From NCBI RefSeq assembly GCF_044647545.1, contig NZ_CP172818.1: a stretch of 64,000 bases of DNA; one strand, written 5' to 3'. Made by a program: the position numbers. The first letter of the stretch is position 1, and each line of letters begins with the position of its first letter. Below, one piece after another: positions 54,601 to 60,600 of the stretch. Source of the DNA: Escherichia coli (lineage in GTDB: Bacteria > Pseudomonadota > Gammaproteobacteria > Enterobacterales > Enterobacteriaceae).

Positions 54601-57600
54601 ACAGGCAAACAATACCGCTACCGTGGCGAATGGTCAGCGCCATCTGCTCAACGGTCATGGTTTCTGCCGGGAAGATCATATCGCCTTCGTTTTCACGGTC
54701 TTCATCATCAAGCACCATTACACCGCGTCCTTCACGCAGCGCAGCCAGTGCATTTTCAACACGTTCGAAAGGCGTACCAAAAGAGGAAAGTAGCGTCTGA
54801 TTCATGGTAAAAAAACCTCACTAAAATTATGGTTACCAGAATCAGGGCAGTCTTAGGAGTGGCGGCATATAGCCAAAATAACGTGAGCGGGTCCATGCCC
54901 GACAGAATCGTTACTCTCTCCCATCCGGACTCTAACCGTCGGCCCCGGAATTACACCGGATCTGCTGTCCTTTGAGTTCGCACCCAAAGCGCTCGCGGGC
55001 TTTCAACTGAGTTGATTTACCGCCGGTGGGGAATTTCGCCCCGCCCTGAGAATAAGCGGATTCACTATAACGCTAATGATTAGCGGCAGCAACGCATAGC
55101 TTCACATAATTCTGGTTTATGACTTACCCTTATCGCACTACAATGGCACTCAACACCTATCAGTACAGGGAAACTACAATGATTGACCCGAAAAAAATTG
55201 AGCAAATCGCTCGCCAGGTTCACGAATCAATGCCTAAAGGAATCAGGGAGTTCGGGGAAGATGTGGAGAAAAAAATCCGCCAAACCCTACAAGCGCAGCT
55301 GACGCGTCTCGATCTGGTAAGCCGCGAAGAATTCGACGTTCAGACGCAAGTCCTGTTACGGACTCGTGAAAAACTGGCGTTACTGGAGCAGCGCATCAGT
55401 GAACTGGATTTGAAAAAACCAACACAAAAACGGGCCAGACGGCCCGTAATATCAGTGTTCTAATTCAAGTTCTCTGGTTTGCATCATTTGTTGGCAATAC
55501 CAGGCATAACGTGCGCAAAACCAGGTTCTATGTTCTTCATCCATGTTACCAGTAACGGCCAGAATATCGACCGGGCGACCTTCTGCGTGCATTCTGGCAA
55601 AACTACGCGCCAGGAAATCGAAATTATTTAAAGAATTAAGACTATGATCCATAAGCACATCCTCCGGTTATCGCATACCTTTTAAGGCCATATGCTTTTT
55701 CTGATTTCAGTATTCCCCAATCAGTGTAGTGCCTTTAAACATAACGTGCGTAAATATATTGTCCCCGATCACACTTTTTAGTGAAAAATAAAAAACCATA
55801 TTAAAAGACTTTCTCTTCCAGAACTTCTCTAACATGTGTTATTATTAACAAAGATAAATGTAAGCAAGGAAACTATCCTAAAGTAAATATTGCGTCACTA
55901 AATGGACATTGGAGTGACATATGATTTTATTCGCCGACTATAACACCCCTTATCTTTTCGCTATTTCCTTTGTACTGTTGATCGGCCTTTTAGAAATTTT
56001 TGCGCTTATCTGCGGTCACATGCTCTCCGGTGCACTTGATGCACATCTTGACCATTATGATTCCATAACCACAGGTCATATTAGCCAGGCACTTCATTAT
56101 CTCAATATCGGAAGATTGCCAGCTCTCGTCGTTCTTTGCTTACTGGCTGGTTTTTTTGGTCTTATTGGCATCCTGTTGCAGCATACCTGCATCATGGTCT
56201 GGCAATCACCACTCTCGAACCTGTTTGTGGTTCCTGTCAGTTTACTGTTTACGATTATTGCGGTGCATTATACCGGTAAAATAGTTGCGCCCTGGATTCC
56301 ACGCGATCATAGCTCAGCTATTACAGAAGAAGAATATATTGGTAGCATGGCGTTAATTACCGGTCATCAAGCCACTTCAGGTAATCCCTGCGAAGGAAAA
56401 CTCACCGATCAATTTGGCCAAATACATTATTTACTACTGGAGCCTGAAGAAGGAAAAATTTTCACTAAAGGAGACAAAGTGTTAATTATTTGCCGACTTT
56501 CTGCAACTCGATATTTGGCGGAAAACAATCCCTGGCCCCAAATATTGTAATTTATTAATCAAAAGGAAATTTAATAATGGATGATATTGTTAATTCTGTG
56601 CCCTCCTGGATGTTTACCGCGATTATTGCCGTATGCATTCTGTTTATTATTGGAATTATTTTCGCCAGGCTCTATCGTCGCGCTTCGGCAGAGCAAGCTT
56701 TTGTTCGTACTGGTTTAGGTGGGCAAAAAGTGGTAATGAGCGGTGGCGCAATCGTGATGCCGATCTTTCATGAAATAATCCCCATCAATATGAATACTCT
56801 GAAGCTGGAAGTCAGCCGCTCAACCATTGATAGCCTGATTACGAAAGATCGTATGCGCGTCGATGTCGTTGTCGCTTTCTTTGTGCGGGTAAAACCGTCA
56901 GTGGAAGGTATTGCCACCGCCGCCCAGACGCTGGGGCAACGCACCCTGTCGCCTGAAGACTTACGTATGTTGGTTGAAGATAAATTTGTCGATGCCCTCC
57001 GTGCAACAGCTGCACAAATGACCATGCATGAGTTACAGGATACCCGCGAGAACTTCGTGCAGGGCGTACAAAATACCGTTGCTGAAGATCTGTCGAAAAA
57101 CGGCCTGGAACTGGAAAGCGTTTCACTTACCAACTTTAACCAGACGTCGAAAGAACATTTCAATCCTAACAACGCCTTTGACGCCGAAGGTTTAACCAAG
57201 CTGACGCAGGAGACGGAGCGCCGTCGTCGCGAACGTAACGAAGTTGAACAGGATGTAGAAGTTGCGGTGCGTGAGAAAAACCGTGATGCACTTTCGCGCA
57301 AGTTGGAGATTGAACAACAAGAAGCGTTTATGACGCTTGAGCAGGAGCAGCAGGTTAAAACCCGTACCGCTGAGCAGAATGCGAAAATTGCGGCTTTTGA
57401 AGCTGAACGTCGTCGTGAAGCAGAGCAGACGCGAATTCTGGCTGAACGACAGATTCAGGAAACGGAAATCGACCGCGAACAGGCCGTCCGTTCCAGAAAA
57501 GTTGAAGCTGAACGTGAAGTTCGCATTAAAGAGATCGAACAGCAGCAGGTCACCGAAATCGCCAACCAGACGAAATCGATCGCTATTGCCGCCAAATCGG

Positions 57601-60600
57601 AACAGCAGTCACAAGCGGAAGCGCGTGCCAACCTTGCACTTGCAGAAGCGGTAAGCGCCCAGCAAAACGTAGAAACCACTCGCCAGACCGCAGAAGCCGA
57701 TCGTGCTAAACAAGTTGCCCTAATCGCTGCCGCGCAGGATGCAGAAACCAAAGCGGTTGAACTGACCGTGCGGGCGAAAGCAGAGAAAGAAGCCGCAGAG
57801 ATGCAGGCGGCGGCGATCGTTGAGTTAGCCGAAGCAACACGCAAAAAAGGCCTGGCGGAAGCAGAAGCACAACGTGCGCTGAACGACGCTATCAACGTAC
57901 TTTCTGACGAGCAAACCAGCCTTAAATTCAAACTGGCATTATTGCAGGCGCTGCCTGCGGTAATTGAGAAATCCGTGGAACCAATGAAGTCTATCGACGG
58001 CATCAAAATTATTCAGGTCGATGGGCTGAATCGTGGTGGCGCTACGGGTGATGCAAACACGGGTAATGTGGGGGGCGGAAACCTGGCAGAACAAGCGTTA
58101 TCAGCCGCACTCTCTTACCGCACACAGGCACCGCTGATTGACTCCTTGCTCAATGAAATTGGCGTTTCAGGCGGCTCACTGGCGGCATTGACTTCATCCT
58201 TAAGCTCAACAACTCCCGTCGAAGAAAAAGCAGAGTAAACCCTCTTCTATGAATAATCCCTGGCCCAAAAAGCCGGGGATTTTTTATATCTGCGTTCCGC
58301 TAAAAGGTGCAAATGATCAGGCTGTTGCAGCATTTTGCGTGACTGCTCGGGGAAGGCAAAACTGCCTCTGGGAAAGCGTTGCGCGGAGTCCGGCGCTCAT
58401 CAACAATCGGGGAGTCAGCAAGGGGCTGAAACGGGAAAGCCCCTCCCGAGGAAGGGGCCTTACAGAAGGAAAGGGTTATGATGAAGCTCGTCATCATACT
58501 GATTGTGTTGTTACTTGTAAGTTTCGCCACTTATTAACAGCCAATCAGAGGGGGAGAAATCCTCCCTCACCCTTGTTCCTTTACTTGGGGTAGGTTGAAA
58601 AAACAACAGCGTCAATAGGCCTGCCAGGTTCGAAGCGAGATCTGTGAAGCGCTTTCCGGTTAGCCTTTTTTATCCTGTTGGATCTTCTTGATAATGTTAG
58701 TGGTCGAGCAACCGTCTTCAAAGTTGAGCACCAGCACTTCGCCACCATTGGCCCAGACTTCTTTACTCCCGGCAATCTCTTCTGGTTTATAGTCGCCGCC
58801 TTTCACCAGCAGATCTGGCAGGATCCCGGCAATCAAGCGCTGCGGCGTGTCTTCTTCAAACGACACCACCCAGTCGACCGCTTCCAGTGCGCCCAGCACA
58901 ATCATACGCTGTTCGAGCGGGTTAACGGGGCGGGAATCCCCTTTCAGCCGTTTGGTGGAGGCATCGCTGTTGACGGCGACAATCAAACGGTCACCCAGCT
59001 TGCGGGCATTTGCCAGATAAGAGACGTGTCCGGCGTGCAGGATGTCAAAGACGCCATTGGTCATCACCACTTTTTCACCGCGTTTACGCGCTGCCGCTAC
59101 AGCAAACTTCAGTTCCTCTTCGGTCATCACACCAAAGCCGGTATCTGCACGTCCACGTACTGCGTTTTCCAGCTCGATCGGCGAAACCGGGGATGTCCCC
59201 AGTTTGCCGACCACCACACCAGCCGCCGCATTGGCAAAGAAGCAGGCTTCTTCCAGCGAATTACCCGCTGCCAGCGTTGCCGCCAGGACACCAATCACCG
59301 TGTCGCCCGCACCGGTAACGTCATACACTTCCTGCGCCTGGGTTGGCATATGCAGCGGCGCTTTACCCGGTTGCAGCAGCGACATACCCTGTTCGGAACG
59401 GGTCACTAACAGAGCCGAGAGTTCGTAATCGGCAATCAGTTTCATGCCGCGCTCAACAATCTCTTCTTCGGTTTTACATTTACCGACAACAGCTTCAAAT
59501 TCCGAGAGATTCGGCGTTAACAGCGTAGCGCCGCGGTAGCGCTCAAAATCGGTACCTTTTGGATCAATCAGCACCGGAACACCCGCTTTACGCGCCAGTT
59601 GGATCATCTGCTGTACGCTTGCCAGCGCACCTTTGGCGTAGTCAGAAAGCACCAGCGCGCCAATCGAACTCAGCGCCTGATTAATCCGTTCGTGCAGCGG
59701 CTGCGGATCAACACCTTCGAAACCTTCTTCAAAATCCAGACGAATCAGCTGTTGGTTGCGGGAAAGCACCCGTAATTTGGTGATGGTCGGATGCGTCGGT
59801 ACAGAAACGAAGTCGCATTTGACGTTGACGTCGGCCAGAGATTTACTCAGCGCGCGCGCCGCATCGTCAATGCCCGTTAACCCGACCAGGCGTGCATTAG
59901 CACCGAGAGAAGCGATATTCATCGCCACGTTAGCCGCGCCGCCCGGACGTTCTTCGATGGTATTTACTTTAACCACGGGCACCGGCGCTTCCGGCGAGAT
60001 ACGGCTGGTGGGACCGTACCAGTAACGATCCAGCATCACATCACCAACCACCATCACTCCTGCACGTTCAAACTCTGGCAGCGTTACTTTCATTCCTGTC
60101 TCCTGAGAGATTCAAAATTTGCGCGCGATAATACCATACTTCATTCTTCCACCAGCCACTTCTGCCAGCTTGCCCGCACCAGATCACGCTCTGCGGTGAA
60201 GCAATCCTCCGACACATGGCCCGGCAATTCCTGTAATGCCAGATGATGAAGTTCATCGCGCAGCGTAGTGTAAGCACGGGTCAGCACCATCGCTTCCTGC
60301 TCTTCCATAATGTCGTTTTGCGCCAGCAGCTCCAGAATACGCACGTTGTCTGACCAGCGCGTTAACTTCGGTTTTTCATGAGCGTAGCGCAACACCAGAT
60401 ATTGGGTAATAAATTCGATATCGGTAATTCCGCCTTCATCGGCTTTGATATCAAAGCGATCGCGATGTTTATTACCGAGATGAGCGCGCATTTTCTCGCG
60501 CATTTCCCGCACTTCCGTTTGCAGAGTTTTACCTTCTCGCGGCAGCGTCATAATCTCGCGACGCACCGCGTCAAAGTGCGCGGTGAGCTGCGGATCGCCG

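Follow-up and report, generated by a model that had tools for sequence, protein, structure and literature searches.

The yqiJ-yqiK locus of Escherichia coli is an NfeD2/SPFH2 (flotillin) operon whose pairing is conserved far outside the Enterobacteriaceae

A 64,000-nucleotide stretch of Escherichia coli DNA (contig NZ_CP172818.1, referred to below as the window) carries on its plus strand, at 55921-58238, a gene for an inner membrane protein followed by a gene for a flotillin-family protein. This locus is the chromosomal E. coli yqiJ-yqiK operon, an NfeD2/SPFH2 (flotillin) pair. It is already described and annotated, in line with Hinderhofer et al. 2009 (PMC2636767) and Popp et al. 2024 (PMC11237479), and is not new. 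The initial annotation of the window had named the two genes yqiJ and yqiK, and both names held. Two plus-strand open reading frames (ORFs) lie exactly at 55921-56550 and 56577-58238, each beginning with ATG, and they are 99.8-100% identical to genes annotated by RefSeq as yqiJ and yqiK. Many E. coli chromosomes match the segment 55700-58700 at 99.8% identity, and on these RefSeq lists in order yqiJ ('OB-fold-containig protein'), yqiK ('flotillin family protein'), an Ibs toxin and hldE. The flanking genes in the window are ribB, ubiK and glgS upstream and hldE and glnE downstream. yqiK of the FDAARGOS_497 genome is 100% identical to the window gene. Since yqiK was matched in 5424/5426 complete E. 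coli genomes, the identity of the locus is far beyond chance.

The organization of the two genes was examined on the plus strand. They are separated by a gap of 26 nt, and each is preceded by a Shine-Dalgarno-like motif, GGAG 7 nt before the ATG of yqiJ and AAGGAA ahead of yqiK. A scan found no plus-strand terminator-like site between the genes, and the spacer is consistent with co-transcription. The pair is treated as the yqiJK operon in the literature (Hinderhofer et al. 2009, PMC2636767, among others). A terminator-like hairpin starts 17 nt past the yqiK stop codon and is likely the end of the operon. Because a scan of the plus strand upstream of yqiJ gave no match to the sigma-70 consensus, we infer rather than locate the yqiJK promoter in the intergenic region between glgS and yqiJ. 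As to expression of the operon, up-regulation that depends on NarQ has been reported.

YqiK had initially been annotated as a flotillin-like SPFH protein, and Pfam confirmed this, with both the Band_7 and the Flot domain scoring well above their cutoffs (Table 1). The Flot match spans the full model (1-124 of 124). When the SPFH region of YqiK was compared with Protein Data Bank (PDB) sequences using phmmer, the top match was human flotillin-1 (9BQ2_B, E 3.3e-4), with prohibitin at 0.22. YqiK residues 41-189 align to flotillin-1 residues 10-156. The flotillin-1 match is visible only with the SPFH region alone as the query; with full-length YqiK as the query nothing was found at an E threshold of 0.01, and relaxing the threshold to 10 added a weak flotillin-2 match only. 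A search of the PDB with the C-terminal 154 residues returned chance matches only, so the cap helix and beta strand of YqiK are not mappable onto flotillin residue numbers.

Structural comparison was carried out with an AlphaFold2 (AF2) monomer model of YqiK. The model is of low confidence (predicted local distance difference test score, pLDDT, 60.1; predicted template modelling score, pTM, 0.27) and was used for secondary structure and match ranking only, not for geometry. Foldseek ranked chains of the flotillin-1/2 complex (9BQ2/9L3G) 1-4, with E values of 6e-10 to 7e-8 and about 21% identity over 418-466 columns. These were followed by prohibitin, HflK/C, stomatin, vault and the E. coli QmcA-YbbJ cage. 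Among solved SPFH proteins, sequence and predicted fold both appear to place YqiK nearer to flotillin than to stomatin, prohibitin or HflK/C. The NCBIfam FloT equivalog NF058507 scored YqiK at 89.9 bits, far below its cutoff of 700, so YqiK is a flotillin-family protein and not a FloT equivalog.

The initial annotation had also described an unusually long coiled coil in YqiK that is rich in Ala, Glu and Gln. The composition was as described. Over residues 201-450, Ala accounts for 18.8%, Glu for 17.2%, Gln for 10.8% and Arg for 10% (47% for Ala, Glu and Gln together), and the helical region is 35% charged. AF2 placed helices at residues 203-364, 372-439 and 444-467, or about 265 residues overall. 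Periodicity was examined by a Fourier test against shuffled sequence. No heptad signal was detected in the helical region (period 3.5, z -1.0 to 0.2). The region gave a period-2 alternation signal (z 2.7-3.6) and a period-11 signal, with z 1.9-3.6 for hydrophobicity and z 4.2 for charge in helix 372-439. In the description of Fu and MacKinnon, the wall of flotillin is a barrel of parallel helices, right-handed and one layer thick, that lacks heptad repeats, has A/G-E alternations and is held by charge interactions. A flotillin-type barrel wall would fit the helical region of YqiK better than a classical heptad coiled coil. In length, about 364 residues follow the SPFH domain in YqiK compared with about 266 in flotillin-1. 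The region is long relative to SPFH proteins generally, yet typical or slightly short within its own subfamily because the orthologues are 576-595 amino acids long. Composition and length relative to SPFH proteins were thus as first proposed, while the coiled coil in its heptad sense was not sustained, and within the subfamily the length is not unusual.

A published regression relates the number of subunits in SPFH cages (y) to the length of CC1 (x) as y = 0.1782x + 10.22. When it is extrapolated to YqiK from the low-confidence monomer model, a CC1 of 162 residues corresponds to about 39 subunits, and a wall reaching from residue 203 to 439 to about 52. We tentatively suggest that YqiK may form the largest SPFH cage of E. 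coli, at least as large as the 44-subunit human flotillin, and that it may work with a PspA-family protein encoded elsewhere. If so, rare in-frame insertions and deletions in the YqiK helix (alleles of 518-575 amino acids) would change the size of the cage and would test the CC1-length rule.

Length variants of YqiK were observed in a clustered protein database, in which the shortest and longest proteins of E. coli, Shigella and Salmonella have 518 and 575 amino acids. The variation falls at 57309-57860 (about residues 245-428) and consists of varied in-frame deletions and tandem duplications within the helical region. Examples are (EQ)n expansions, a 13-residue duplication of AERRREAEQTRIL, a 7-residue duplication of KSIAIAA and a 9-residue deletion of AEARANLAL. 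The sizes are not multiples of 7 or 11. The clustered proteins gave the impression that length is a common polymorphism, and this idea was rejected. yqiK is exactly 1662 bp in 57/60 complete genomes from a sample spread across the ranking, so the length variants are rare alleles.

YqiJ was originally called NfeD-like. Fold, architecture and operon context bear this description out, whereas the Pfam NfeD hidden Markov model (HMM) does not. Pfam assigns YqiJ to the YqiJ_N and YqiJ_OB families (Table 1), and no match to NfeD (PF01957) was found at E up to 10. A YqiJ family profile was searched against 1.84 billion representative proteins, yielding 1537 matching clusters. 58/58 diverse family members (24-49% identity to YqiJ) possess both YqiJ_N and YqiJ_OB, and 0/58 match PF01957 at E up to 1. 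The control, an E. coli YbbJ sequence 100% identical to a database protein, did match PF01957, at 46.8 bits. NCBIfam has no model that matches YqiJ. Full-length YqiJ found nothing among PDB sequences by phmmer at E up to 10, and the YqiJ family profile found no NfeD chain in the PDB. Alignment of the YqiJ and YbbJ families with hhalign was weak (P 0.0022, probability 12.9%), and the aligned parts are collinear over the last membrane helix, the linker and the OB domain.

The C-terminal OB fold of YqiJ resembles solved NfeD domains. Hydrophobic segments lie at YqiJ residues 8-39, 57-94 and 96-119. The AF2 model (pLDDT 79.8 overall and 81-93 in the beta domain) has helices at residues 6-30, 68-94 and 100-125 and six strands within residues 143-202. 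The model was compared with 350,542 PDB chains. The best match was 3WWV, the NfeD OB domain of P. horikoshii 1510-C (template modelling score, TM, 0.79; root mean square deviation 2.5 Å), and the second-best was 2K14, the OB domain of B. subtilis YuaF (TM 0.68). The top two matches are therefore NfeD OB domains. Hinderhofer et al. 2009 (PMC2636767) assigned YuaF and YqiJ to NfeD2, a class of weakly conserved NfeD homologues whose partners are SPFH2 flotillins, and reported nuclear magnetic resonance shifts for the YqiJ C-terminus. Our argument from fold, architecture and operon partner follows the same reasoning as theirs.

The loop between hydrophobic segments 1 and 2 of YqiJ (residues 40-59, 56038-56097) contains many Asp and His residues. 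Two of them, D40 and H42, hardly vary across enterobacterial homologues, and a metal-binding or pH-sensing role for this loop is conceivable.

To learn whether the two genes remain together in other bacteria, genomic context was looked up for six distant YqiJ homologue families (24-42% identity). A Band_7+Flot gene encoding 576-595 amino acids lies directly after yqiJ in every distant locus with a readable downstream gene (loci L005-L012). On three short contigs the downstream gene begins at the same spacing after yqiJ and is then cut by the contig end. The yqiJ-yqiK pairing is conserved far outside the Enterobacteriaceae. 5/6 distant families also have a PspA_IM30 gene immediately upstream of yqiJ, present at loci L002-L007 and L010-L012 (e.g. 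L005:3278-3970, L010:3736-4413 and L012:2768-3442). In the E. coli window no PspA_IM30 gene adjoins yqiJ. The upstream neighbor is glgS on the opposite strand, so E. coli yqiJ-yqiK is an abbreviated two-gene form. Popp et al. 2024 (PMC11237479) describe pspA-yqiJ-flotillin operons and note that abbreviated operons, consisting of a flotillin and YqiJ/YuaF, occur more widely and may cooperate with PspA homologues whose genes lie at other loci. The two-gene module proposed in the initial annotation is thus upheld by the close spacing and by the pairing in distant relatives, with the refinement that a PspA gene usually stands upstream there.

At loci L005-L007 an extra 169-amino-acid gene without a Pfam match was observed ahead of the PspA_IM30 gene. 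The distant relatives thus have a three- or four-gene operon, a form that E. coli lacks.

Selection on the two genes was examined by comparison with E. coli K-12. yqiK differs from its K-12 counterpart at 81 nucleotides (95.1% nucleotide identity) and 4 amino acids, nearly all changes being synonymous, and YqiJ differs at 1 amino acid. The ratio of nonsynonymous to synonymous substitution rates (dN/dS), calculated by the Nei-Gojobori method, is 0.026 for yqiJ (dS 0.079), 0.020 for yqiK (dS 0.22) and 0.015 for the yqiK helical segment (dS 0.285), compared with 0.016 for hldE (dS 0.116). Both yqiJ and yqiK are under strong purifying selection.

The level of synonymous divergence from K-12 varies along this region, with dS of 0.22 in yqiK (56577-58238), 0.08 in yqiJ (55921-56550) and 0.12 in hldE (58660-60093). 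Past recombination is one possible cause, and another is weak selection on codons in a gene with low expression.

An NfeD2/SPFH2 operon in which YqiK forms a cage with YqiJ as its partner is probably the best overall explanation of these observations. We infer the physiological role of the pair by analogy with flotillin-1/2, HflK/C and QmcA-YbbJ. YqiK would form a homo-oligomer, a large cage facing the cytoplasm on the inner membrane. Its SPFH ring would sit on the membrane, a single layer of parallel helices would make the wall and the Flot domain would close the cap, so that the cage may fence off a patch of membrane. YqiJ would lie within that patch, where its OB domain may bind YqiK and stabilize the oligomer. 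The C-termini of YqiJ and YqiK would both lie in the cytoplasm. When the envelope is under a specific stress, the pair would likely serve to confine or stabilize lipids or membrane proteins, possibly in cooperation with a PspA-family protein encoded elsewhere in E. coli. Solved SPFH cages include the flotillin 44-mer, the HflK/C 24-mer and the QmcA-YbbJ 26-mer. In S. aureus, NfeD is reported to promote oligomerization of the flotillin FloA.

Several observations weigh against this explanation. The Pfam NfeD HMM does not recognize YqiJ, and comparing the YqiJ and YbbJ family profiles gives a probability of just 12.9%. The YqiK model has a pLDDT of only 60.1, and the fold ranking needs caution. 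There is no solved YqiJ-YqiK complex or YqiK oligomer, and PDB sequence matches are none for YqiJ and weak only for YqiK. In E. coli, yqiK mutation produced no phenotype in growth or under stress, even in a quadruple SPFH deletion, and the native protein can barely be detected (Hinderhofer et al. 2009, PMC2636767, among others). In the one recent assay found, neither overexpression nor deletion of yqiJK had an effect.

Alternative roles were weighed against the same evidence. YqiK-YqiJ could be an ATP-independent holdase that captures and stabilizes unfolded or insoluble membrane-associated proteins during stress instead of a passive fence. The precedent is the FloA-NfeD complex of S. aureus, which shares the two-gene logic of YqiJ-YqiK and which is reported to stabilize unfolded clients, NfeD favoring the stability of the oligomer (Ukleja et al. 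2024). However, FloA is a short flotillin paralogue from an SPFH subfamily other than the long YqiK/FloT type, E. coli yqiK has no known client or stress phenotype, and no sequence feature separates a holdase from a scaffold. We consider the holdase possible but rather doubtful. A membrane-repair role alongside PspA/IM30 is likewise a tentative proposal. YqiJ-YqiK would mark or prepare patches for PspA or YjfJ, which are encoded elsewhere in E. coli. It draws on the PspA_IM30 gene found directly upstream of yqiJ in 5/6 distant families and on the suggestion of Popp et al. 2024 (PMC11237479) that abbreviated operons may use PspA homologues from elsewhere. Conversely, yqiJ in the window adjoins the opposite-strand glgS and no PspA gene, a PspA gene is likewise missing from P0241, the nearest (42% identity) of the families examined outside Escherichia, and no E. 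coli interaction data were found.

That YqiK cages or modulates FtsH, HtpX or another membrane protease, as HflK/C does with FtsH, is unlikely. HflK/C cages FtsH, overproduced QmcA interacts with FtsH, and relatives of YqiJ bear the IMG name 'membrane protein implicated in regulation of membrane protease activity'. Yet YqiK is predicted to face the cytoplasm whereas HflK/C faces the periplasm, YqiJ has no ClpP-type protease domain by Pfam, and no linked protease gene was present in any locus examined. It is very improbable that the operon is a decaying or functionless remnant that has fallen out of use. Single and quadruple SPFH mutants show no phenotype, the native protein is undetectable or marginal, and sporadic frameshifted or truncated yqiK alleles exist. 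Against these stand the presence of yqiK in 5424/5426 complete genomes, its 1662-bp length in 57/60 sampled, and only 4 amino acid differences from K-12 among 81 nucleotide differences, with dN/dS at 0.020 and as low as 0.015 in the low-complexity helix. A dN/dS of about 0.02 rules out a decaying gene despite the absent mutant phenotype and the barely detectable native protein. Least credible of all is an anti-phage defense or other conflict system built around an SPFH protein. The locus does adjoin a type I toxin-antitoxin unit in a strain-variable region, where a fimbrial operon is present or absent and ibs/sib occurs once or twice. Neither YqiJ nor YqiK has a PADLOC match, which makes a defense role unlikely; moreover, yqiJ-yqiK is core and not patchy, and nucleotide identity with K-12 is unbroken from glgS through yqiK into ibs/sib. 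The NfeD2/SPFH2 operon, with YqiK as the probable cage and YqiJ as its partner, remains our preferred explanation.

Table 1. Features of the yqiJ-yqiK locus and its flanks (coordinates in the window)
Feature	Position	Strand	Residues	Description and evidence
Intergenic region glgS(-)/yqiJ	55659..55920	+		Divergent, AT-rich (GC 0.38-0.39); presumed yqiJK promoter region
yqiJ	55921..56550	+		209-amino-acid inner-membrane protein, NfeD2 type; RefSeq annotation yqiJ
YqiJ_N	55942-56265	+	8-115	Multi-helix membrane domain; PF21001, 57.9 bits (cutoff 23)
YqiJ_OB	56335-56514	+	139-198	C-terminal OB fold; PF07290, 54 bits (cutoff 25.4)
yqiJ-yqiK spacer	56551..56576	+		26 nt; AAGGAA ribosome-binding site
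yqiK	56577..58238	+		553-amino-acid SPFH protein, flotillin family
YqiK membrane anchor	56586..56684	+	4-36	Hydrophobic; Kyte-Doolittle window maximum 2.98; AF2 helix 10-38
YqiK SPFH/Band 7	56691..57152	+	39-192	PF01145, 67.6 bits (cutoff 23.6), E 1.9e-18
YqiK helical region	57183..57977	+	203-467	Ala/Glu/Gln-rich; predicted wall (CC1) and cap helix (CC2) of SPFH cage
YqiK flotillin C-terminal domain	57792..58166	+	406-530	PF15975 Flot, 140.9 bits (cutoff 27), E 2.8e-41
Intrinsic-terminator-like hairpin	58255..58281	+		10-bp stem with 6 GC pairs, then TTTTTATAT (T run)
Sib antitoxin RNA	58463..58615	-		Antisense to ibs; Rfam RF00113 SIB_RNA, 126.8 bits (gathering 56), full model 1-147
ibs type I toxin ORF	58478..58537	+		MMKLVIILIVLLLVSFATY, 19 amino acids; translation, and RefSeq coding sequence at the matching position in the matching chromosome

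The ibs/sib locus had been placed directly after the module. A Sib RNA and an ibs gene are indeed present, the 19-amino-acid ibs ORF lying within the Sib span on the opposite strand, but the terminator-like hairpin and about 220 nt intervene. ibs/Sib is a neighbor and not part of the yqiJ-yqiK module. The window has a single unit and K-12 two in tandem (ibsD/sibD and ibsE/sibE), and window 58256-58615 aligns to both K-12 copies.

On the glgS side, yqiG-yqiH-yqiI (fimbrial usher, chaperone and subunit), which lie just upstream of glgS in K-12, are missing from the window at about 55415, and the K-12 alignment begins only at 55415, between ubiK and glgS. The 3' end of ubiK (ORF 55119-55463) is also altered. 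Window 55409-55420 consists of 12 nt (TTTGAAAAAACC) compared with 73 nt in the closest genome, FDAARGOS_497, where this segment contains the final 24 codons of ubiK together with its stop. The window ubiK ORF reads on and overlaps the 3' end of the convergent glgS. 0/12 top-ranked complete genomes listed match this junction without a break, which could be a strain-private deletion or an assembly error. Further upstream, the ribB leader on the minus strand (about 54848-54996) corresponds to a 100% identical stretch of FDAARGOS_497 in which RefSeq places a flavin mononucleotide (FMN) riboswitch.

The yqiJ-yqiK locus was correctly recognized and is a well-annotated core operon. YqiK is the only flotillin-type protein of E. 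coli, near-universal in the species and tightly conserved (dN/dS about 0.02), yet a protein with no known phenotype, partner or structure.

The locus can be compared with several known systems. Closest is yqiJ-yqiK of E. coli K-12 itself (NfeD2a-SPFH2a; Hinderhofer et al. 2009, PMC2636767), which has the same locus, gene order, protein lengths (209 and 553 amino acids) and neighbors (glgS and hldE). It differs from the window in yqiK sequence (95.1% nucleotide identity), in having two ibs/sib units and in carrying yqiGHI upstream of glgS. The pspA-yqiJ-flotillin operons of Popp et al. 2024 (PMC11237479) have the same YqiJ_N/YqiJ_OB gene followed by a Band_7+Flot gene, and in addition carry PspA_IM30 upstream and often another small gene, E. 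coli having the abbreviated two-gene form. In B. subtilis yuaF-floT (yuaG), as in E. coli, the gene for an NfeD-type OB-fold membrane protein lies immediately upstream of a long flotillin gene, but the B. subtilis operon also includes yuaI, and E. coli YqiJ falls in Pfam YqiJ_N/YqiJ_OB.

The human flotillin-1/2 cage (9BQ2, 9L3G) is the closest solved relative of YqiK by both sequence and fold search. The two share the SPFH and C-terminal flotillin domains and a long, charged, heptad-free helical region. Human flotillin is attached to the membrane by lipidation and a hydrophobic surface, is a hetero-oligomer and has no NfeD partner, whereas YqiK is anchored by a transmembrane segment, encoded by a single gene and paired with an NfeD-type protein. 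E. coli QmcA-YbbJ (8Z5G; Tan et al. 2024) also combines a cytoplasm-facing SPFH protein with an adjoining small NfeD gene and has been solved as a cage. QmcA is stomatin-type and far shorter than YqiK, with 276 residues in the solved model and 26 subunits in the cage. The gene order is reversed relative to yqiJ-yqiK, qmcA being upstream of ybbJ, and YbbJ matches Pfam NfeD PF01957 while YqiJ does not.

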